DNA of 64,000 bases from Escherichia phage vB_EcoM_KAW3E185 (MK373782.1); one strand, 5' to 3'; shown: positions 923-60,352, counted from the first letter of the stretch. The notes: generated by a model not told the origin, from the letters alone. A program made the numbers and translations.

Positions 923-1148
923 CTCGGTCCCATGATTTGGCCATTAATCCGGACATAAATTCTTCAATGCGCGTTTCTTTAGATGGACTTTCACTATTAG
1001 AGACCGCAAGTTTGTAATCTGCAATAGGACAGAACATATCAAGGTCCATATTAAGGTCGTCTTTGATTTTTTCTTCTGACACATCTTTATCGTATGTGTA
1101 CAGATAACTATCACATGATTCTGATTTAATGTAAATTGCTATACTCAT
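912..1148 (-). CDS. Hypothetical small protein (start 1148 or 1163)
   Basis: ORF track 912..1163; internal ATG (MSIAIY) has AGGAAT Shine-Dalgarno. Confidence 0.5.
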   Translation of the reverse strand: MSIAIYIKSESCDSYLYTYDKDVSEEKIKDDLNMDLDMFCPIADYKLAVSNSESPSKETRIEEFMSGLMAKSWDRDDE

Positions 1149-1624
1149 CTCAAATTCCTGCATTCGGTAATAAAACGTTCAACTTCATTATTCTTGGCTT
1201 TTATCTTGTCTTTATGTTCTTGTAAACTACTTTTAATAAGATTAATAATGATAGCGACAGTGCCGCCGCCAATGATGCCACCAATAATACTTACGATAGT
1301 AGATGCTAATAAGATAGCAATAATATCAACAAAACCGAAAGAACTCACCTTAGTACTAAAAAACCATACCGATGGTACAAATATAATCCATCCTGCTATC
1401 CATTGGCACTTATTGAAAAACTTTTCAAGATCAGCTTGAGTTGTTCGTATTACTTCATCGATAGGTTGATAACCGTTAATGTATCTGTTCACGATAATAC
1501 CTGCTGGCTGGTCGATTTTAAATTCTTGGCAAATACGTTTAACTAAGTAGGATGGACATCCTGTCCAATCTACTGAATAGTATGAAATACCTTTATTGCC
1601 GTCGTCTATATTATTGTTAATCAT
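1145..1624 (-). CDS. Membrane protein with C-terminal FITECR tail (family A)
   Basis: 159 aa; long hydrophobic segments; ends ERFITECRNLR; GGAAGG Shine-Dalgarno. Confidence 0.65.
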   Translation of the reverse strand: MINNNIDDGNKGISYYSVDWTGCPSYLVKRICQEFKIDQPAGIIVNRYINGYQPIDEVIRTTQADLEKFFNKCQWIAGWIIFVPSVWFFSTKVSSFGFVDIIAILLASTIVSIIGGIIGGGTVAIIINLIKSSLQEHKDKIKAKNNEVERFITECRNLR

Positions 1625-2310
1625 TACCAGCCTTCCATAGGGAATTCCAGATAAACTTGAGCGTTGACACGAATTTCATTGGTAATCTTTTTAACTCGGT
1701 CTGTATTACGAGATACACGTCCGAACCAACGCCATCCATTACTAATTGCACGAGAACCAGTGTGCCATGTTTGCCAATCAAACTGAAGAAGAGTACGGTC
1801 TGGAGCTTCCCATTTCTCTAGTTCACCTTTTTCAATTTTTTCGAGGACTTCTTTGTGCCACTGGCGATAGATAAGTTCGCCATCAGGAATCTGACTGAAC
1901 TCTGCAGTTCCTGTTGCAAAATGAGTAGGACACACATCAGCGTTAACAAGACCAAGAATATGTTCAGAATGGTAACGAGGGTTGTCATAGTCAGGTTGTC
2001 CTGCAGTAATAAAGTGTTGACCAACTGGAATATCAGGGCGAGGAACATCGTCATGGTGGTATCCAGGGATAGCAGGATACCACCCAGGCATCAGCATATG
2101 AACCCGAGAATCAAATACAACATGTTGATTAGTCCAATCAATTGGGAGATTGGCAATAAAGCTACGAGTGATTGAGCCACCATTATCCCAAGCAAAACCC
2201 AAATCACAATTAAAGAACATTGGTTCATTTTTGATTCGGTCATTTTGTACGTTATGTGCAAAACTACCAACTGCACGAGCTTGACTATTAAAAGTTTTAG
2301 AACTATTCAT
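1624..2310 (-). CDS. Hypothetical 228-aa protein, His-rich (possible metal-dependent enzyme)
   Basis: ORF with GAGGAAAA Shine-Dalgarno; motif PGYHHDD and several conserved-looking His/Asp; no TM segments. Confidence 0.6.
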   Translation of the reverse strand: MNSSKTFNSQARAVGSFAHNVQNDRIKNEPMFFNCDLGFAWDNGGSITRSFIANLPIDWTNQHVVFDSRVHMLMPGWYPAIPGYHHDDVPRPDIPVGQHFITAGQPDYDNPRYHSEHILGLVNADVCPTHFATGTAEFSQIPDGELIYRQWHKEVLEKIEKGELEKWEAPDRTLLQFDWQTWHTGSRAISNGWRWFGRVSRNTDRVKKITNEIRVNAQVYLEFPMEGW

Positions 2311-2311
2311 A

Positions 2312-2617
2312 TTATTTTCCTCGACATTCTTTAATGAAATTTTCTAGATTGGTAGATTCAATAGCTTTTTTACGAGCTTCTGCGTGTTCTTCTTCAGACA
2401 ATTTACATTTATAATTGACCCAGACGTTATGGTCGAAACTAGTCGTGGCATATAATAACAATGCTCCAACGAATAGCAAAAACGGCGATAAGAATACAAA
2501 ACCAGGAACACCATCCATACTGTAAGCCTTTTGTAATACTGCAACAGAAAGAGCTGCGTAAAAAAGTGATACAAATATTGTTAAAAGACCAATTCGGTTG
2601 GTTTCGCCTAATTTCAT
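2312..2617 (-). CDS. Two-TM membrane protein with C-terminal ENFIKECR tail (family A)
   Basis: 101 aa; two hydrophobic helices; ends LENFIKECRGK; GAGGAG Shine-Dalgarno. Confidence 0.7.
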   Translation of the reverse strand: MKLGETNRIGLLTIFVSLFYAALSVAVLQKAYSMDGVPGFVFLSPFLLFVGALLLYATTSFDHNVWVNYKCKLSEEEHAEARKKAIESTNLENFIKECRGK

Positions 2618-2626
2618 AATATTCTC

Positions 2627-2668
2627 CTCATGTTTTAATAGGACTACTATAACATAGTCCTATCAGTT
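2627..2668 (-). promoter_or_regulatory. Early promoter with stem-loop (PeSL-like cassette)
   Basis: Minus strand has a -35-like TGTACAAA, 17 bp spacer, TTATAGT -10, inside inverted repeat ATAGGACTA...TAGTCCTAT; approximate coordinates. Confidence 0.5.
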
Positions 2669-2675
2669 TGTACAC

Positions 2676-2876
2676 TTATTTTGACATTTCTTCGATGTCA
2701 CGACGATACCCATCACGAACTTCACGAAGAGCTTCAAGGCCACACATAGGCTCGATACCAGTAATGTGAACTTGATTAATCTGATACTCTACATCTTCTA
2801 ACTGAGCGAAAACATAACGACGTTCTGCTGCACAACCAGGTTTAGCTTTACCGAAACGTTTATTCAAAGTAGTCAT
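2676..2876 (-). CDS. Hypothetical small protein (66 aa from internal ATG)
   Basis: ORF track 2676..2894 begins at a GTG; internal ATG MTTLNKRF has GGAGAT Shine-Dalgarno. Confidence 0.5.
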   Translation of the reverse strand: MTTLNKRFGKAKPGCAAERRYVFAQLEDVEYQINQVHITGIEPMCGLEALREVRDGYRRDIEEMSK

Positions 2877-2902
2877 TTTTATATCTCCATTCACTCATTT
2901 GT

Positions 2903-2947
2903 TTTGATAGGTCTATAGTATCAACAACTACAGACCTTGTAAACTGT
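2903..2947 (-). promoter_or_regulatory. Early promoter with stem-loop (PeSL-like)
   Basis: GTTTACA, 17 bp, TACTAT on minus strand; inverted repeat AGGTCTGTAG...CTATAGACCT spans the -10. Confidence 0.55.
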
Positions 2948-2956
2948 TTTGTGAAA

Positions 2957-3913
2957 TTATTTGAAAGGTTTTACCATATGAAAGTTTTGTTTGAAACGCT
3001 TGACGTAATCGTCGTGTCCTAAGCTTTGGTACATACTTACTACTTTGCTATAATTTTCCCAAGCGAACTCACGGAACCATCCTGATGTGATTGATGTACA
3101 GACCTTTTCAAGGGCCATCATAAAACTATCACGTGGATGGATTTCAAAGTTATTAGGAATCTGAGAACGTTCTAACGCTAGTACACATGATTCTTCGTAT
3201 ACGCCGGCCAATTTGACCATTTCTGGTAATGATTCGAACTTCTCGCGTGAGGTCATGACTTCAGAACCATCTTTCATATAAAATGTATACGCTGGACGGT
3301 CTGTTAGTGCAATGGCTTCGTGAATAGTATCATGATCGTATGTGTAGATGTCATCTTTAAAGAATGCGCTTTTAGAAGTGTCAAGAACCGGGTGAGCATA
3401 ATTCAAAGTTTCTTTCTGGCGTTTCAGCATAATTTCAGTAAGTTCATCGTTCAGTGTAACACCTTTACCACGAAGATACTGAATATGGTTCATAGTCTTT
3501 AAAAAGAATGGATTATTTTTCTTGAAACGATGAGACATCTTAATTGCAAGACATATCTCAGGAGTTGCCCAGTAAAACCCGTTCAAACGGTCTTTAGTCA
3601 AATTTTTCTTGGCGTATTTTAAAAGGTCATAAGAAGACGTGAAATCTTCAGGAGTGAGTTCACCGACTAATTCACGGACATTAGTGATTGCCGGAACAAT
3701 ATATGCTTCAAAATGAGTTTCGCGTCCATTATGGAAGCATTTGAAAACTTGGACATCAGGGTTATCTTGGTGAACATATACACCCATCATTTGATTTTTG
3801 AATGCATTCCAAGAACCTTGGTCCGCAATAAAGTCCCAATCACTATTTTTAATAGCGCTAGAATCAATAAGACCGTGATAGTGAAGTGCACGAGAACCAA
3901 TAACTAACATCAT
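2957..3913 (-). CDS. Hypothetical 318-aa protein with possible nucleotidyltransferase-fold motif
   Basis: N-terminal hhhGS-x17-DWDF resembles the GS...DxD signature of Pol-beta-type nucleotidyltransferases; GAGGAAAA Shine-Dalgarno; assignment is speculative. Confidence 0.6.
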   Translation of the reverse strand: MMLVIGSRALHYHGLIDSSAIKNSDWDFIADQGSWNAFKNQMMGVYVHQDNPDVQVFKCFHNGRETHFEAYIVPAITNVRELVGELTPEDFTSSYDLLKYAKKNLTKDRLNGFYWATPEICLAIKMSHRFKKNNPFFLKTMNHIQYLRGKGVTLNDELTEIMLKRQKETLNYAHPVLDTSKSAFFKDDIYTYDHDTIHEAIALTDRPAYTFYMKDGSEVMTSREKFESLPEMVKLAGVYEESCVLALERSQIPNNFEIHPRDSFMMALEKVCTSITSGWFREFAWENYSKVVSMYQSLGHDDYVKRFKQNFHMVKPFK

Positions 3914-3941
3914 AATATTTTCCTCGGATTAATTCATTAAC

Positions 3942-4193
3942 TTAAATTTCACGACATGCGATATTATATTCATCCCAGAGGTCATCATGTGAAGCCTCTA
4001 CCAATGGAACGATTGTACCGTTTATGTCTTCATTATAAGGGCAAATTGTACAGTGCGCATCTTCGAATCGGATGCCTTTGTGTTCAGATTTTTTATAACG
4101 CATATCGAATATCTTTGCAAACTTTTCACGAGTAATGGTTTTAGCAACCACTTTAGTTCCGATACTTTCGTAATAAATCATTGTGGACTCCAT
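3942..4193 (-). CDS. Hypothetical small protein (C-terminus NIACREI, weak family A resemblance)
   Basis: 83 aa; preceded by a PeSL cassette. Confidence 0.55.
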   Translation of the reverse strand: MESTMIYYESIGTKVVAKTITREKFAKIFDMRYKKSEHKGIRFEDAHCTICPYNEDINGTIVPLVEASHDDLWDEYNIACREI

Positions 4194-4196
4194 TTG

Positions 4197-4246
4197 TTTT
4201 GATAGGACTACTATAACATAGCCCTATCTTGTTGTAAACTGTTTTA
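4197..4246 (-). promoter_or_regulatory. Early promoter with stem-loop (PeSL-like)
   Basis: GTTTACA, 17 bp, TATAGT with inverted repeat ATAGGGCTA/TAGTCCTAT. Confidence 0.55.
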
Positions 4247-4441
4247 GCAAGAATAACTAGATGATACCCAGCCTTGAACAGTGATACTATTGTGGGATAA
4301 TGAGATCGCGTCCTGGAGATTCAGACCTGCGTTATCTTCAATCCATAATGTAACTTCTTCGCGTTCTTCTGTTGCAATTTGGAACAGGTTTTCCAGAGCA
4401 GCTACTGCCGTACGTACAGCACAATCTAATTCACGAGACAT
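4244..4441 (-). CDS. Small protein, C-terminal GWVSSSYSC (family B, paralog 3)
   Basis: 65 aa; AAGGAA Shine-Dalgarno overlaps the stop of the upstream paralog. Confidence 0.65.
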   Translation of the reverse strand: MSRELDCAVRTAVAALENLFQIATEEREEVTLWIEDNAGLNLQDAISLSHNSITVQGWVSSSYSC

Positions 4442-4450
4442 ATTGTTTCC

Positions 4451-4723
4451 TTAGCAAGTGTGAGAAGATGCGACCCAACCACCGGTTTCGAGGCTCAGGT
4501 TGTAGTCGTATTGGTAAACGTCAGCCCATTCAGCATAGCCGTTTTTTGCACAACGTTCAAGATCGGCTTTAAGATGTCCGGGTGAATGATAGGTTCCACC
4601 CATACCATAAGCTGGGTACAAGTTGAATGTTGTGTTTTGTTTATCAGCAATTTCTTTGGCAGCCTCAATAGCTGCATAGATTTTTGCTACAGCTTCAGCC
4701 AGTTCGGTTTGTTCTTTAGACAT
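4451..4723 (-). CDS. Small protein, C-terminal GGWVASSHTC (family B, paralog 2)
   Basis: 90 aa; AAGGAA Shine-Dalgarno; internal similarity to 4733..5038. Confidence 0.65.
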   Translation of the reverse strand: MSKEQTELAEAVAKIYAAIEAAKEIADKQNTTFNLYPAYGMGGTYHSPGHLKADLERCAKNGYAEWADVYQYDYNLSLETGGWVASSHTC

Positions 4724-4732
4724 AATGATTCC

Positions 4733-5038
4733 TTAGCACAACGCAGAAGACGAAACCCAAGCACCTTCAGTAATAACGTATCCATTACCTTCACGCTTAA
4801 CATCGCCGCCATTATTTTCAATTTCATCTTTCATCCACTGGGATACGATTTCACCCTTAGGATAATAAGTACGACCGCTACCATAATCACCTACAGAAAA
4901 TGATACGGCATATTGGTCTGCGATCTTTGTTGCTTCTTCTTCGATACGTTCAGCTTGATTCAGAAGTTTATAAATTGCATCTGAAGCGGATTTGGCATCA
5001 TTAAACTCTGGTACTTTAATTTCAATAATCTTACTCAT
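4733..5038 (-). CDS. Small protein, C-terminal GAWVSSSALC (family B, paralog 1)
   Basis: 101 aa; start ATG overlaps the stop of the upstream gene (AAATGA). Confidence 0.65.
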   Translation of the reverse strand: MSKIIEIKVPEFNDAKSASDAIYKLLNQAERIEEEATKIADQYAVSFSVGDYGSGRTYYPKGEIVSQWMKDEIENNGGDVKREGNGYVITEGAWVSSSALC

Positions 5039-5394
5039 TTTCTACATTCCTTAATAAAGTTTTCGATTGTTTCATTTTCACGTTTAGCTAGAAGTTCATT
5101 ATAACTAATCATTTGAGAAGCGTAAATCTTTTTATTTTTCTTGTTATGGTTTATAAAATCGTAGTAAAAATAGACTACAGTACAAAATGATGCGATGGAT
5201 GCAAAGGCTTGGGTATACCGTAAGTCCTGCCATTGGTCTGTGAATCCACCAGTGTTCCCTATAAATCCTAACACAACGCCGTCAATAAGAAATCCAACTA
5301 ATCCAAAGGCAAATCCCATGCCAATACTCATAATAAAAATTAGAATGTTCTCACCAAGAGAAGGCCATACGGTTAAGAGTTGAGGCTTTTGCAT
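5035..5394 (-). CDS. Two-TM membrane protein with C-terminal ENFIKECRK (family A)
   Basis: 119 aa; two hydrophobic helices; AAGGAA Shine-Dalgarno. Confidence 0.7.
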   Translation of the reverse strand: MQKPQLLTVWPSLGENILIFIMSIGMGFAFGLVGFLIDGVVLGFIGNTGGFTDQWQDLRYTQAFASIASFCTVVYFYYDFINHNKKNKKIYASQMISYNELLAKRENETIENFIKECRK

Positions 5395-5768
5395 CTTATT
5401 TCCTTAACGAATTCCATAGCTTCTTCATATTCATACTTTTTAACAGCCTCGTCATATTGGGCTCTTGCTTTTGCACATTGAATTTTCCATTCACGTACTC
5501 GAGCTCTATAATGACGTCCTTGGTACCAATATCCCACCCAATTAATAGGCATTAATAAAAATGGCACAATAAACGACCCGGCTATAATAAGTAAAAACAC
5601 TGCATCAGACGATATAACTTCACTAGAATCTAAAACAGCTCCTATAATCATAAAGATTAAAAATGCTAAAGCTAAAATAGGGCCAAATAGTACTTCATTT
5701 GGGATTAATTTACGCTTGTATTCATACGCCCAGGGCTTACTTGGTATGTATAGGGTTGGCTTTGACAT
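5373..5768 (-). CDS. Two-TM membrane protein with C-terminal EFVKEIRCK variant tail (family A)
   Basis: ORF track 5373..5798 begins at a TTG; internal ATG MSKPT used; hydrophobic helices. Confidence 0.6.
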   Translation of the reverse strand: MSKPTLYIPSKPWAYEYKRKLIPNEVLFGPILALAFLIFMIIGAVLDSSEVISSDAVFLLIIAGSFIVPFLLMPINWVGYWYQGRHYRARVREWKIQCAKARAQYDEAVKKYEYEEAMEFVKEIRCKSLNS

Positions 5769-6339
5769 ATTCTCTACATTCCATAATAAATTGCTCAAGG
5801 ATTAAATTGTTAGTGAAATTAGGACTAACAACCATGGTTTCATAAAGCGCATCAATAGCACTTAAAGCATCAACTCTTTTAAGCAAAGGCTTGCCTTCAT
5901 ACATAGTTTCAGAATCGACGATTAACGTAAAGTAATATTTTTTATTATCGACTAGAACTTCTGTATCGATATAAAACATATTAGACCTCAGAAGCTTATC
6001 TCTAAAACCATAATAATCTTCTGAACGTTCACTGATATATTCCCATTCAGTGTTTAAACAACAAACAGACCATGTAGGAGCAACGAAATCAGTGAATCTA
6101 ATATCATGGTCTGCAACTAGTTTAGCAATAGCTCCGATATCATGAATCATAATACCTGGGGCTAATAAAGATTTTCTGCTATGGCTAGCCGTTTTCTCAG
6201 TAGTCTCATAAGAAGACGACCAGTACCATTTACGTCCGGTTGCAACATATCGTAATGAATCAACTAAAGACGTAGGTGGATTTACCTTATCTCGGAACTC
6301 TTCGAACATTGAGTCAATATCATTATTTTGGTTTCGCAT
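5737..6339 (-). CDS. Hypothetical 200-aa soluble protein with C-terminal EQFIMECRE motif (family A)
   Basis: ORF track 5737..6360 begins at a TTG; internal ATG MRNQNN has AAAGGAG Shine-Dalgarno. Confidence 0.6.
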   Translation of the reverse strand: MRNQNNDIDSMFEEFRDKVNPPTSLVDSLRYVATGRKWYWSSSYETTEKTASHSRKSLLAPGIMIHDIGAIAKLVADHDIRFTDFVAPTWSVCCLNTEWEYISERSEDYYGFRDKLLRSNMFYIDTEVLVDNKKYYFTLIVDSETMYEGKPLLKRVDALSAIDALYETMVVSPNFTNNLILEQFIMECREYVKANPIHTK

Positions 6340-6356
6340 GTTAACTCCTTTATTAT

Positions 6357-6380
6357 CCAAAAGGAGGACCGGAGTCCTCC
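6357..6380 (-). terminator. Intrinsic terminator hairpin
   Basis: Perfect palindrome GGAGGAC-CGGA-GTCCTCC followed on the minus strand by TTTTGG; approximate coordinates. Confidence 0.55.
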
Positions 6381-6388
6381 GTATTATT

Positions 6389-6982
6389 TTATTTCAAAGA
6401 GTTAATATATTCTTGTACATCAGCAGAAGTGGTTTCGACACCGGCTGGAGTGCCATTGAACGTTTCAACACGAGTCAGAGTGTCTTCGATATCAACCTTA
6501 GTCAGTGCAGCGATTTCAATTACATCATCAGCCGTAGAGATACCAAGGGCATTGGCTGCTCGAGTTTCACGAATGTATTCGAGTTTGATTGCCAGGTTCT
6601 GACGAGCATCGTCAAGTTCAACCACCTTACGAGCAATTTCAATTCGCATAGCGGCATACCCGTCAGCTTTTGTATTAAGTTGTTCGGCAGTTCGACGATA
6701 CAGAAGACCAAGCTTAGCATGCATGGTAACATCTTGTCCTTCGGCCAAGAGCTTACGAATTTCACGTTCCTTAGAAGCGGCTTGCTTATTCTTTTCAATA
6801 ACAAGTTCGCGAATACGTTTTTCTTCATTAATAGATTTAACAGAAGCCGTTTTTAGTTCTTTGATTTGGGTAATCAACTTATCTGCAGCTGCGTTATACT
6901 GTTCTTCGACAGTCAGATTTTTAGCCATAGCAGTACCCAGTTTAGTGCGGATGAATTCAACAAGTTTCTTCAGTGTGTTCAT
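6389..6982 (-). CDS. Coiled-coil protein (weak PspA/IM30-like character, speculative)
   Basis: 197 aa from internal ATG MNTLKK with AAGGT Shine-Dalgarno; highly charged heptad-like sequence. Confidence 0.6.
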
Positions 6983-8496: not shown

Positions 8497-8525
8497 CCAA
8501 AAAGCCCCAACCGTAAGGAAGGGGC
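8497..8525 (-). terminator. Intrinsic terminator (copy 2 of the 29-nt repeat)
   Basis: Identical to 7954..7982; downstream (minus) of the non-coding RNA region. Confidence 0.6.
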
Positions 8526-8577
8526 TAAGCCTTGCGGCAACCTTGTCGGGGTTCCACCTGCTAAGGCAAGTGTTTGT

Positions 8578-8669
8578 ACGAAACGCCGGGATTCGAACCC
8601 GGTTATTAAGCAGTTGACGCTACTCAATATTTTTAAAAGGCCATATCTCGACCATATCCGAACGTTCCG
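8578..8669 (-). ncRNA. tRNA-like element or stable RNA candidate (canonical T-arm, non-canonical remainder)
   Basis: Minus strand contains CCGGG-TTCGAAT-CCCGG T-arm and an acceptor-like pairing, but the D and anticodon arms do not fold canonically; lies in a ~300-nt ORF-free stretch. Confidence 0.35.
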
Positions 8670-8832
8670 TCAAAAACGCTACTCGGCTTACGGCAAAGAT
8701 ATTTCCTCGAATCGATAATTCGGTGCGCCGTTTCTGTTGTGATAGTAAAGAATCAGAACACAGTAAAACTGTGGGAGAAACTATACTCCAGGGAACATCA
8801 GTCCGACGACTTACCGGTAGCGACCCGGTTTC

Positions 8833-9177
8833 TCATTTTGGCATATCATCAATTTGCTCTCGACGCCGACGCCATAGATTAATCGCTTCATTAACACATT
8901 CGGCGTTTGGTATATGACGGCAATAATATAATGATTCGCGTTTCTGGAACCGATGTTGCAACGGGATTTCGTTTAAAAGATCTTTACGATCAAAGTATTC
9001 AAAACTAGTTAACCCTGAACGGTTTTTAATGAACTTCCAATGGCCGAATTCATTTTGAACATAGATGTAATCGGCATGCTGATAAAGTGAATTAATCAAT
9101 CGATGAGAAATAACTGTATCATATTCATTAAAATAAAACGTTAAATCATGAACTACCAAATAAATATTGCCTTTCAT
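8833..9177 (-). CDS. Hypothetical protein (115 aa from internal ATG)
   Basis: ORF track 8833..9225; internal ATG MKGNIYLVV has GAGGAAAA Shine-Dalgarno. Confidence 0.5.
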   Translation of the reverse strand: MKGNIYLVVHDLTFYFNEYDTVISHRLINSLYQHADYIYVQNEFGHWKFIKNRSGLTSFEYFDRKDLLNEIPLQHRFQKRESLYYCRHIPNAECVNEAINLWRRRREQIDDMPK

Positions 9178-9195: not shown

Positions 9196-9272
<77 letters not shown>

Positions 9273-9275
9273 GAT

Positions 9276-9352
9276 TGGTGACCCAGACCAGATTCGAACT
9301 GGTAACCTTTCCCTTATGAGGGGACTGCTGCTAACCGTTGAGCTACAGGGCC
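9276..9352 (-). tRNA. tRNA with CAU anticodon (Met, or Ile if lysidine-modified)
   Basis: Canonical T-arm ACCAG-TTCGAAT-CTGGT, anticodon loop CTCATAA, encoded CCA; one acceptor mismatch and an imperfect D-stem in my reading. Confidence 0.6.
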
Positions 9353-59390: not shown

Positions 59391-60352
59391 TGTACTCTTT
59401 AGAAGAATTTAATAACCAAGCTATAAATGCAGATTTCCAACGAAACAATATGTTTAGTTGTGTATTTGCTACTACACCATCAACCAAATCGTCTTCACTA
59501 ATTTCGTCAATTGGTAGTTTTGCTTATAATAACTTAGGGTTGGATTCAGATTGGCTAGGATTGTCTCAAGGTGATATCAATCAGGGCGTAACAACCCTGA
59601 TTACAGCAGGAACACAGAAATTAATTCGAAAATCGGGTGCAAGTAAATATCTGATTGGAGCAATGAGTCAACGTACGGTACAAAGCTTGTTAGGTGAGTT
59701 CACAGTAGGAACTTATCTGATAGACTTCTTCAATATGGCATATAATAATACAGGTTTAATGATTTATTCTGTAAAAATGCCTGAGAACCGATTATCTTAT
59801 GAAACGGACTTCAACTATAACTCCCCGAACATCCGAATTACCGGCCGTGAAATGGACCCGTTAGTAATAAGCTTTAGAATGGATTCTGAAGCATCTAACT
59901 TTAGAGCAATGCAAGACTGGGTAAACTCGGTCCAAGACCCTGTAACAGGTCTTCGCGCTTTACCACAAGACGTCGAAGCAGATATTCAGGTTAATTTACA
60001 CGCACGAAATGGTTTACCACATACCGCTGTCATGTTCACAGGATGTATTCCTGTTAGTGTCTCTTCTCCTGAGTTAACGTATGATGGTGATAATCAGATA
60101 ACAGTTTTTGATGTAACATTTGCTTATCGCGTTATGCAATCAGGTGCTGTAAATAGACAGGCTGCTTTAGAATGGCTGGAATCAGGACTTATTAGTAGTG
60201 TTTCAGGAATGTTTGGAAATAATCAGAATGATTCTGGACTAGGAAGTGCAGTATCAAGACTTTCTAGATTAGGTGGGACTGCTGGTGGTGTGTCTAATAT
60301 AAACACATTGACAGGTGTTGTGAATTCTGCGTCAAGAGTTTTAGGACTATAA
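59390..60352 (+). CDS. 54: gp54 baseplate tail tube initiator
   Basis: 320 aa, same as T4 gp54. Confidence 0.9.
   Translation: MYSLEEFNNQAINADFQRNNMFSCVFATTPSTKSSSLISSIGSFAYNNLGLDSDWLGLSQGDINQGVTTLITAGTQKLIRKSGASKYLIGAMSQRTVQSLLGEFTVGTYLIDFFNMAYNNTGLMIYSVKMPENRLSYETDFNYNSPNIRITGREMDPLVISFRMDSEASNFRAMQDWVNSVQDPVTGLRALPQDVEADIQVNLHARNGLPHTAVMFTGCIPVSVSSPELTYDGDNQITVFDVTFAYRVMQSGAVNRQAALEWLESGLISSVSGMFGNNQNDSGLGSAVSRLSRLGGTAGGVSNINTLTGVVNSASRVLGL

Follow-up and report, generated by a model that had tools for sequence, protein, structure and literature searches.

A C-terminal tail shared by small proteins of the e.6-nudE cluster of T4-like phages, and its possible docking onto the PspA/Vipp1-like protein e.6

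In the 64,000-nucleotide stretch of Escherichia phage vB_EcoM_KAW3E185 (MK373782.1) analysed here, hereafter the window, five genes bounded by nudE (464-922) and e.6 (6389-6982) code for proteins that carry, at or close to their C-terminus, a short tail with the consensus hydrophobic(-3)-[E/D/N]-x-F-[I/V]-x-x-C-R-basic. This tail is found on membrane and soluble proteins alike and is conserved as protein, and e.6 very probably codes for a phage homologue of PspA/IM30/Vipp1 (ESCRT-III superfamily), bacterial proteins that repair and remodel membranes, a finding that is independent of the tail. We propose, on circumstantial evidence and with a probability that we put at about 0.42, that the tail is a common cytoplasmic docking helix, for which e.6 would be the most likely partner.

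T4 is the best-studied lytic phage, yet its genes e.2 to e.8 have no assigned function. The present results turn five hypothetical proteins into a defined and testable module, the elements of which are the probable PspA/Vipp1 homologue, a shared tail of about 10 residues marking its likely clients, and a gene order conserved across Escherichia, Klebsiella, Edwardsiella, Citrobacter, Serratia and Aeromonas phages. The genes themselves are known, uncharacterised open reading frames (ORFs) of the T4 family; the shared tail, its breadth, the selection acting on it at the protein level and the identity of e.6 appear to be undescribed, and a literature search on the e-gene names and on phage PspA/ESCRT-III found no report of a phage-encoded PspA/Vipp1 homologue.

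The tailed genes and the specificity of the motif

The region is 97-99% identical to that of the RB69-like Mosigvirus phages NicPhage, mobillu and SHSML-52-1, and every gene of the cluster lies on the minus strand. A first-pass annotation of the window had pointed out the five ORFs and their common ending; all five were recovered at the same coordinates and on the minus strand, and the shared motif proved genuine by pattern counts as well as by a position-specific scoring matrix (PSSM). The genes are orthologues of T4 e.2, e.3, e.4 and e.5, plus RB69ORF133c. Comparison with the named RB51 and RB69 annotations indicates that T4-type phages have a contiguous nudE-e.2-e.3-e.4-e.5-e.6 arrangement, and that RB69-type phages carry about 3.4 kb of additional genes inserted between e.2 and e.3. 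Each of the five proteins falls into a separate PHROGs family of uncharacterised proteins, membership resting on a full-length profile match together with the position between e.6 and nudE, and a Pfam search of the five gave no significant match. The features are listed below (aa, amino acids; TM, transmembrane helix). Bits refer to the PSSM of the tail, built from 39 family representatives, which include the scored sequences, so that absolute scores are inflated and the gap to other positions is still clear.

1145..1624, minus strand: e.2 orthologue, 159 aa, phrog_2203 (E=2.5e-50); soluble N-terminal part, two predicted TM, predicted cytoplasmic tail ending VERFITECRNLR
1157..1174, minus strand: e.2 motif core F-I-T-E-C-R (TTT ATT ACC GAA TGC AGG), 27.3 bits
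2312..2617, minus strand: RB69ORF133c orthologue, 101 aa, phrog_9798 (E=8.8e-68); two predicted TM and the tail LENFIKECRGK
2321..2338, minus strand: ORF133c motif core F-I-K-E-C-R (TTC ATT AAA GAA TGT CGA), 30.7 bits
5035..5394, minus strand: e.3 orthologue, 119 aa, phrog_2330 (E=8e-50); predicted membrane protein with the tail IENFIKECRK
5041..5058, minus strand: e.3 motif core F-I-K-E-C-R (TTT ATT AAG GAA TGT AGA), 29.5 bits
5373..5768, minus strand: e.4 orthologue, 131 aa, phrog_2604 (E=7e-62); two predicted TM and the tail AMEFVKEIRCKSLNS, full C-terminus EFVKEIRCKSLNS
5394..5411, minus strand: e.4 motif core F-V-K-E-I-R, 21.9 bits; overlaps the e.3 start codon at 5394
5737..6339, minus strand: e.5 orthologue, 200 aa, soluble alpha/beta protein, phrog_2607 (E=1.4e-95); motif in the last helix LEQFIMECREYVKANPIHTK, C-terminus EQFIMECREYVKANPIHTK
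5773..5790, minus strand: e.5 motif core F-I-M-E-C-R, 4 nt upstream of the e.4 ATG (5768)
6363..6380, minus strand: G+C-rich hairpin GGAGGACTCCGGTCCTCC with a T run after it, separating e.6 from the coupled genes e.5, e.4 and e.3
6389..6982, minus strand: e.6, 197 aa, probable PspA/IM30/Vipp1-like protein (AlphaFold2 hairpin, Foldseek, Pfam on relatives, profile against the PDB)

The first-pass annotation gave the endings of e.2, ORF133c and e.3 correctly (ERFITECRNLR, ENFIKECRGK and ENFIKECRK), whereas e.4 and e.5 continue for 4 and 7 further residues, overlapping the next gene. It also attributed one build, two hydrophobic helices followed by a basic tail of 30-45 aa, to the four membrane proteins. 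This holds loosely, but e.2 has an additional soluble N-terminal part of about 75-85 aa preceding the two TM helices, and for e.3 the window sequence shows a weak second hydrophobic segment, two TM helices being called in 11 of the 14 members of its family. The segments that follow the second TM helix are K/R-rich, as described, but reach about 40-56 aa, and that of ORF133c is the exception in being net neutral. ORF133c is the minimal tailed membrane protein and has, besides its own family, a weak PHROGs match to the e.2 family (E=1.2e-4). The e.4 protein is a variant with Ile in the position of the motif Cys, the Cys that follows its Arg being out of register, and within the e.4 family I, V, S or M takes the place of this Cys.

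When the 64 kb were translated in all six frames, the strict pattern E.FI.ECR had four matches, compared with 0.02 in shuffled sequences, and all four lie in this cluster, in real ORFs, 1-11 residues before the stop codon. When all window ORFs of at least 50 aa were scored with the PSSM, the five tails reached 21.9-30.7 bits and every other position 9.9 bits or less; on the complete T4 genome, the tails of e.2, e.3, e.4 and e.5 scored 19.9-28.4 bits, with a maximum of 13.6 bits elsewhere. Of note, T4 thymidine kinase (tk, NC_000866, ~59763-60344) ends in IYVSLCRKHWNELTKKLG, which fits the loosest regular expression but not the PSSM, and is a chance look-alike. A profile search centred on the tail against 5.8 billion proteins, made with a word index ill-suited to short motifs, returned only fragments of the same families and no unrelated phage protein of known role. 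The remark that the motif is not recognised from characterised T4 proteins therefore stands, as no protein of known role carries the tail, in T4 or among the proteins searched; the genes themselves are not new to T4, being orthologues of the uncharacterised T4 e.2-e.5, plus RB69ORF133c. A PADLOC search for known defence-system proteins gave no matches.

Conservation of the tail as protein

The tail was followed through 31 e-cluster loci, collected from viral contigs and annotated phages with e.6 as anchor and comprising 123 distinct junctions; genes in the fetched loci were called by a simple longest-ORF procedure and then clustered. Selection was assessed within orthologous families by Nei-Gojobori proportions of nonsynonymous (pN) and synonymous (pS) differences at the four core codons (F, I/V, C, R). 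In e.2, e.3 and two e.5 subfamilies, pS at the core codons amounts to 0.48-0.79, like the rest of the gene, whereas pN is 0.00-0.13 against 0.09-0.40 elsewhere in the gene, that is 3-10 times lower. The corresponding pN values for core and remainder are 0.045 and 0.379 in e.2, 0.000 and 0.092 in the Dhaka-type e.5, and 0.059 and 0.379 in the Klebsiella/Edwardsiella-type e.5. Because synonymous sites diverge freely while the amino acids are held, the conservation of the tail acts on the protein and not on a shared ribosome-binding site, as the first-pass annotation had argued from codon differences and spacing.

Both of its observations were borne out. Within the window, motif codons differ at synonymous positions (AAA/AAG, CGA/AGA/AGG, TGT/TGC, TTC/TTT, AAT/AAC), and the eight residues ENFIKECR are identical in the e.3 and ORF133c proteins, yet encoded with four synonymous differences. 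Across the 123 junctions, the motif Arg is written with all six codons (AGA, CGT, AGG, CGA, CGC, CGG), Phe with TTT or TTC, Cys with TGT or TGC, and Ile with ATT, ATC or ATA. The next start codon lies at -1 to +10 nt from the Arg codon in the window (about -2 to +10 in the earlier account) and at -1 to +31 nt over all loci, and in families f54, f82 and f96 the motif lies 61-82 nt from the next start.

The opposite explanation, namely that the tail is a nucleotide artefact of the Shine-Dalgarno (SD) and initiation region of a translationally coupled downstream gene, deserves attention, since in the window every motif sits over the SD or the start of the next gene. Several codons are indeed dual-purpose, AAG-GAA in e.3 and e.4, TGC-AGG-AAT in e.2 (where AGG-AAT doubles as the SD of the next gene, which starts at an ATGA overlap, +8) and CGA-GGA in ORF133c, so that SD-like AAGGAA, GCAGGAA and CGAGGA coincide with K-E, C-R-N and R-G; moreover, AGA or AGG accounts for 62 of 117 Arg codons. 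In this respect the tails resemble ordinary coupled junctions with an embedded SD, in which AGG and AAG-GAA can serve as SD purines. They differ from these in being conserved as amino acids, also where no start is nearby. The nucleotide conservation and constrained spacing expected of an SD or coupling element were not found, with the exception discussed below: core synonymous sites have diverged like the rest of the genes, the spacing is variable, and the codons for Phe, Ile and Cys contribute nothing to an SD. Furthermore, the SD shifts among e.3 orthologues that keep the motif, from K-E in the window to C-R-K in the T4 type, and the motif occurs at no other coupled junction in the 64 kb or in T4. 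An SD artefact as the origin of the tail is, in our view, scarcely credible.

The exception is the e.5 of T4/RB69-type phages, the core codons of which show zero synonymous changes where about 30 would be expected, the rest of e.5 having a pS of 0.44. Because of this frozen stretch (TTT RTT AWG GAA TGT AGA GAA TATG), the data suggest an extra constraint at the nucleotide or RNA level at the e.4 translation start, unlike the other tails.

Breadth, architectures and predicted topology

The tail is carried by about 20 families distinguishable at the BLAST level, all in the e.6-to-nudE cluster. Two-TM carriers make up about 13 families (e.2, e.3, e.4, ORF133c and others of Klebsiella-, Edwardsiella- and Enterobacter-type phages), and soluble carriers about 10 (four e.5 subfamilies and several unrelated small proteins, which add about five architectures to that of e.5). 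Among the 39 representatives, the motif Cys is present in 34 and the Arg in 38; whole families have A, I, V, M or S instead of the Cys and retain the other motif positions. The distance from the motif to the C-terminus varies from 1 to 25 residues. Each phage has between two and six tailed genes in the 31 loci, and the gene order is kept: e.6, e.5, membrane carriers, an array of unrelated small paralogues, e.2-type carriers, nudE.

Profile comparisons by hhalign with the tail included linked e.2 to e.3 (95%), e.3 to ORF133c (84%) and ORF133c to the soluble family f87 (72%), but when the tail was cut off, only orthologue-level links remained in an all-against-all comparison. Because these cross-family links vanish with the tail, it is the sole detectable element shared across at least four or five architectures. 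The idea of a common tail on otherwise unrelated membrane proteins thus has to be widened, the tail being their only detectable similarity but extending to about 10 soluble families as well. Paralogy among the two-TM families is possible; as a full explanation of the tail it was rejected, the cross-family signal depending on the tail itself.

The oldest tail carrier is the soluble e.5. In its alignment (A5), which has about 18% identity, E182, F184, C188 and R189 belong to just 14 invariant columns. An AlphaFold2 model of modest quality (predicted local distance difference test score, pLDDT, 58; predicted template-modelling score, pTM, 0.61) places a helix at 179-194 that covers the motif. Foldseek searches with the e.5 fold returned nothing from the PDB (best E=0.07) and only uncharacterised e.5 orthologues from BFVD.

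For the membrane carriers, TM helices were called from Kyte-Doolittle windows. Scoring was possible for 11 two-TM families; in each of them the loop that joins the helices contains 0-2 K/R and is never net positive, and both termini are K/R-rich. Because of the positive-inside rule, this K/R-poor loop between K/R-rich termini predicts an N-in/C-in topology, hence a cytoplasmic tail, which answers the topology check that the first-pass annotation had proposed. The hydrophobic moment (muH) of the tail averages 0.38, compared with 0.31 for shuffled sequences (95th percentile 0.56), with 3-4 hydrophobic residues. A generic amphipathic membrane-targeting helix of the MinD/FtsA type was considered and is disfavoured because of this weak amphipathicity and of the near-invariance of Phe, Cys and Arg.

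e.6, a probable phage homologue of PspA and Vipp1

The e.6 protein is annotated everywhere as hypothetical, sometimes as 'host specificity protein'. It is the most conserved product of the cluster, with 55-99% identity where the tailed proteins share 15-48%. An AlphaFold2 model computed from the single sequence, with no alignment, consists of two helices (2-80 and 86-145), with pLDDT above 90 at residues 31-130. When this model was compared by Foldseek with 350,542 PDB chains, the top 10 matches were all Vipp1 (E=4.7e-4 to 1.7e-2, template-modelling score about 0.5, full-length), followed by CHMP1B and PspA. The predicted structure thus has the long alpha1-alpha2/3 hairpin of the ESCRT-III-type fold, hairpins being a common shape.

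Sequence comparisons lead in the same direction. An exhaustive phmmer search with e.6 against 1.84 billion representatives delineated a compact family with 37 members, each about 200 aa long. Two of its members, P0052 and P0051, which are significant full-length phmmer matches to the window e.6 (E=5.9e-7 and 4.0e-7), score 39.0 and 35.1 bits with Pfam PspA_IM30 (PF04012), above its gathering cutoff of 33.9; two further members match PspA_IM30 at E~1e-4, and distant members are labelled PF04012 in the precomputed annotation of the collection itself. The window e.6 has no Pfam match of its own at E<=1, its membership being supported transitively and by profiles. A profile of 28 e.6 sequences (A7) searched against the PDB ranked Vipp1/PspA at positions 1-7 and 9 (E=6.5e-5 to 2.9e-3), in a co-linear alignment of residues 1-138 with 1-139, and the deeper e.6 profile aligned with E. 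coli PspA by hhalign at E=6.7e-4. Because three independent lines of evidence, the fold match, the relatives above the Pfam cutoff and the family profile, agree, we regard e.6 as very probably a phage-encoded member of the PspA/IM30/Vipp1 family.

Members of this family bind membranes through an amphipathic N-terminal helix, alpha0, and assemble into rings or rods. Compared with Vipp1, IM30 and PspA, e.6 is co-linear from residue 1 to about 140, is closest to Vipp1 by Foldseek, and is predicted to have a hairpin preceded by a basic, amphipathic N-terminal helix: its first 18 residues have a muH of 0.43 (0.42 in PspA), a value reached by 7% of shuffles, and a net charge of +4. Unlike them, it is shorter (197 aa), and its C-terminal third, which is acidic (net -7) and strongly conserved, has no aligned counterpart in Vipp1/PspA.

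Linkage of the tail to e.6

At every e.6 locus examined (the 31 loci and those of phiAS4, Margaery and 44RR2.8t), the gene next to e.6 has the motif or a derivative of it, and e.5 is always the first gene after e.6. In the Aeromonas phages phiAS4 and 44RR2.8t and the Citrobacter phage Margaery, e.6 stands in a different neighbourhood, with nrd genes and 55.2. There, an e.5-type protein ending in IEMFVDYCRRTAPKRD, VELFVDYCRRTASKK or MEKFIHSCKKNVLEKYDP is encoded directly after e.6 and is the single tailed protein beside it.

The motif also changes in concert. In Serratia phage WSPA and in L045 and L047, two very distant T4-like contigs with an e.6 of about 23% identity, respectively 2, 2 and 4 consecutive genes after e.6 end in a sequence resembling [D/E]-x-I-[I/L/V]-x-x-A-R-x-R. 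Every tail of these distant lineages combines the change from F to I with that from C to A. Five of the six downstream genes of L045 and L047 match the relaxed pattern [D/E]-x-I-[ILV]-x-x-A-[R/K]; 3 of 259 background families fit this pattern, compared with 6 of the 8 genes downstream of e.6 in L045, L047 and WSPA. In the same vein, the Glu before the Cys, which the first-pass annotation counted as part of the motif core, turns out to be lineage-specific: it is present in 12 of 14 tails of T4/RB69/Dhaka-type phages and in 2 of 19 elsewhere. Different families of the same lineage share 0.94 out of 4 variable motif positions, against 0.67 out of 4 for families of different lineages (permutation p ~0.006). 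The conservation of e.6, well above that of the tailed proteins, is hub-like, and opposite charges are seen in its conserved C-terminal third (net -7) and in the tails (net +2 to +7). The earlier suggestion of a shared partner therefore gains indirect support from the e.6 synteny and the lineage-wide concerted changes of the motif, the partner itself being inferred.

A number of points weigh against docking of the tail onto e.6. The enrichment of the relaxed pattern has a nominal P of ~7e-11, for a pattern that was defined after seeing the data, and the test of concerted change is not fully corrected for phylogeny, so that gene conversion could mimic its result. Where genes are packed as tightly as in phage operons, synteny says little about physical contact, and because the hairpin at 6363..6380 separates e.6 from e.5, the two may not be strictly co-expressed. 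Direct comparisons of e.6 with PspA (phmmer against the PDB, hhalign with profiles of 5 and 10 sequences, BLASTP) were negative or below threshold, a result reversed only when the fold, the exhaustively searched family and the deeper profile were considered, and the structural model of e.6 stems from a single sequence. The two-TM carriers gave no Pfam matches to PspB (PF06667) or PspC (PF04024), and when 15 tail-family alignments were compared by hhalign with E. coli PspB, PspC and PspD, the best values (f98 with PspB, 39%; e.4 with PspB, 18.5%) were not significant. Lastly, tailed genes are often lost or broken in relatives. L012 (11601-11700) has no e.3, its e.4 being followed by a 116-nt gap; in L014 (10636-11220), e.5 is frameshifted, leaving 145 aa and no tail, and e.2 is absent; L021 has neither e.3 nor e.4. 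In T4 itself (NC_000866), e.2 is split: the annotated gene (67652-67960, 102 aa) lacks the tail segment, and the tail NFITECRKLK lies on a separate 53-aa ORF that ends at 67472 and overlaps nudE, whereas e.2 of RB51 is intact (162 aa). The carriers are therefore individually dispensable, and none is essential to e.6.

A possible docking module and its alternatives

T4-like phages have placed one short tail, predicted to be a cytoplasmic helix, on many otherwise unrelated small early proteins. If it does dock onto e.6, each of these would bind the same partner through it. The two-TM carriers might then serve as membrane adaptors, anchors or regulators of an e.6 polymer, in the way that the C-terminal domain of PspC acts with PspA, and the soluble carriers might be regulators, cargo or clients; the role of the whole module would be to stabilise or remodel the inner membrane of the infected host. 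A wider proposal, possible but doubtful, is that T4-like phages own a membrane system of the ESCRT-III/PspA type, made of e.6 and fast-turnover plug-in clients or adaptors, two-TM anchors as well as soluble factors, attached through a co-evolving F-I-x-x-C-R peptide, which would keep the inner membrane energised or blunt abortive-infection defences that depolarise it. Superinfection exclusion and lysis timing had also been put forward as roles, but nothing in the analysis points specifically to either.

There are precedents for this kind of system, both for a PspA-family protein with small membrane partners and for short C-terminal docking motifs. In the enterobacterial Psp operon, pspA is followed by pspB and pspC, and PspC, a polytopic membrane protein, binds PspA through its cytoplasmic C-terminal domain (PMC5596341). 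The phage cluster is similar in that a gene of the probable PspA family lies directly upstream of genes for small inner-membrane proteins, and the two-TM carriers are predicted to be N-in/C-in with a cytoplasmic C-terminal helix, comparable to the PspA-binding domain of PspC. It is dissimilar in that the tailed proteins have no detectable PspB, PspC or PspD homology, there is no PspF-like regulator, and the system is phage-encoded; moreover, the phage has two to six interchangeable carriers that share a short motif, some of them soluble, and their binding is a proposal.

Among docking motifs, the MIM motifs of ESCRT-III subunits bind MIT domains, and the C-terminal tip of SSB and the C-terminal peptide of FtsZ likewise dock onto hubs. 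The tail is like these in that different proteins carry a short conserved peptide at their C-terminus or close to it, through which several clients would share one partner. It has no sequence resemblance to them, and it is found on the putative clients and not on the ESCRT-III-like protein. T4 also encodes small membrane regulators, namely RI and RIII, which act on the holin T, as well as Imm and Sp. These are comparable as small phage-encoded membrane or membrane-associated proteins acting by protein contacts; unlike the genes studied here, none is tailed according to the whole-genome scans, none is homologous, and it is the tailed genes that adjoin e.6.

The tail might instead dock onto a host protein conserved in Enterobacterales and Aeromonas, for instance PspA/PspF, FtsH/HflKC or another inner-membrane or cytoplasmic hub, the cluster then being a host-takeover or anti-defence set. 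Protein-level selection, the many architectures, the cytoplasmic tail and the concerted changes would fit equally well; the shift from F/C to I/A coincides with a large phylogenetic distance and possibly a different host, and the genes, early-type and accessory, belong to a hyperplastic region near known host-interaction genes. We consider this unlikely, as it leaves unexplained the tight linkage to e.6, even in different neighbourhoods, and as no candidate was identified, with no clue from PADLOC or Pfam. Quite unlikely, too, is that the tails bind each other as homo- or hetero-oligomerisation helices, forming a small bundle packed around a Phe/Ile/Cys stripe and joining the tailed proteins into a single membrane complex that needs no hub of its own. 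Hydrophobic residues at -3, 0, +1 and +4 make up a heptad-like stripe, self-complementary interfaces would also predict concerted change among the two to six tailed genes of a phage, and the replacement of the Cys by I, V, M, A or S suggests a packing role. Yet phiAS4, 44RR2.8t and Margaery have one tailed gene, so that hetero-assembly was not the ancestral role, and the motif is very short for a stable bundle, in which, if parallel, the Arg and the flanking basic residues would repel.

That the tail is an ancestral relic, or a generic membrane-surface helix with an intrinsic role and no specific partner, seems very unlikely. The two-TM families do share a build, the tail-dependent hhalign alignments span both TM and tail, PHROGs joins ORF133c to the e.2 family, and the tail is basic and weakly amphipathic; but at least four or five soluble architectures are tailed as well, muH hardly departs from shuffled sequences, F, C and R keep a fixed spacing at 15-20% overall identity, unlike generic membrane helices, and concerted shifts across families would have no explanation. 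A signal for sorting or processing, as was also suggested at first pass, or for degradation, whether a site for T4 gp21, FtsH or Lon or the target of a Cys/Arg modifier such as a phage ADP-ribosyltransferase, would agree with the C-terminal location and the nearly invariant Cys-Arg. The gp21 cleavage consensus in T4 is (L/I)-x-E, and the I-x-E before the Cys in T4/RB69-type phages resembles it. This Glu is, however, absent from 17 of 19 tails outside the T4/RB69/Dhaka lineages, the distance to the C-terminus is variable, and whole families have another residue in place of the Cys, which makes such a signal improbable to a high degree. A relation to the capsid-targeting sequence (MKTYQEFIAE type) or to a gp21 site was discarded directly, as the tail PSSM gives -12.4, -1.2, -9.0 and -7.1 bits for the capsid-targeting sequences of IPI, IPII, IPIII and Alt, respectively.

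Should docking of the tail onto e.6 prove true, it would represent the first phage-encoded ESCRT-III-type system with adaptors and a compact model for the recruitment of PspA-family polymers to membranes, and the tail would offer a peptide tag or inhibitor handle on membrane maintenance during infection and on membrane-targeting defences. Even with another partner, the tail would be useful as a sequence signature for recognising members of the module in new phage genomes.

Neighbouring genes and further observations

A second C-terminal motif is found within the cluster, in three tandem small soluble paralogues (4244-4441, 4451-4723 and 4733-5038, minus strand; phrog_899/phrog_4882) corresponding to RB69ORF136c-139c. 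They end in W-[V/I]-[S/A]-S-S-x-x-C-stop (GWVSSSYSC, GGWVASSHTC and GAWVSSSALC), and phages of the Dhaka, Klebsiella, Edwardsiella, Serratia and Aeromonas types have one to five copies interspersed among their tailed genes. The terminal Cys after a run of Ser hints at modification or metal binding. RB69ORF134c (2957-3913, minus strand, 318 aa) contains DUF7277 (E=1e-27) and DUF7275 (3e-79); it is conserved out to Acinetobacter phages, in which it is annotated as a putative nucleotidyltransferase, and co-occurs with the SSSxxC paralogues. RB69ORF132c (1624-2310, minus strand, 228 aa, phrog_1843), in which Pfam recognised no domain, shows exceptional conservation for an accessory gene, with a C-terminal stretch of ~31 residues (RVSRNTDRVKKITNEIRVNAQVYLEFPMEGW) that is nearly identical in Escherichia, Klebsiella, Edwardsiella, Serratia and Aeromonas phages.

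With regard to transcription, sites resembling T4 early promoters (TTTACA-17-TATAAT and similar), which are consensus matches only, occur on the minus strand at 7052-7024, 7337-7309, 4238-4210, 2943-2915 and 2674-2646. They precede e.6, a frd.3-like gene, the genes 3942-4193 and 2676-2894, and ORF133c, and judging from these matches the cluster is probably transcribed from several early promoters.

About 5-7 kb upstream of e.6, another family (family 69: L018 5035-5400, L026 2875-3195 and relatives) comprises proteins of 106-121 aa that start like the capsid-targeting sequence of internal proteins (MNIKTYNEFLAES / MKTYDEFLTES) and end in DEQFIMSARGRKELAKLYK, a weak look-alike of the tail by coincidence. 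They are probably internal head proteins, outside the module. Past the cluster, a GC-rich patch is present at 8500-9000, and tRNA-Arg(tct) and tRNA-Met(cat) lie at 9196-9272 and 9276-9352 (minus strand), in agreement with the tRNA region of T4.

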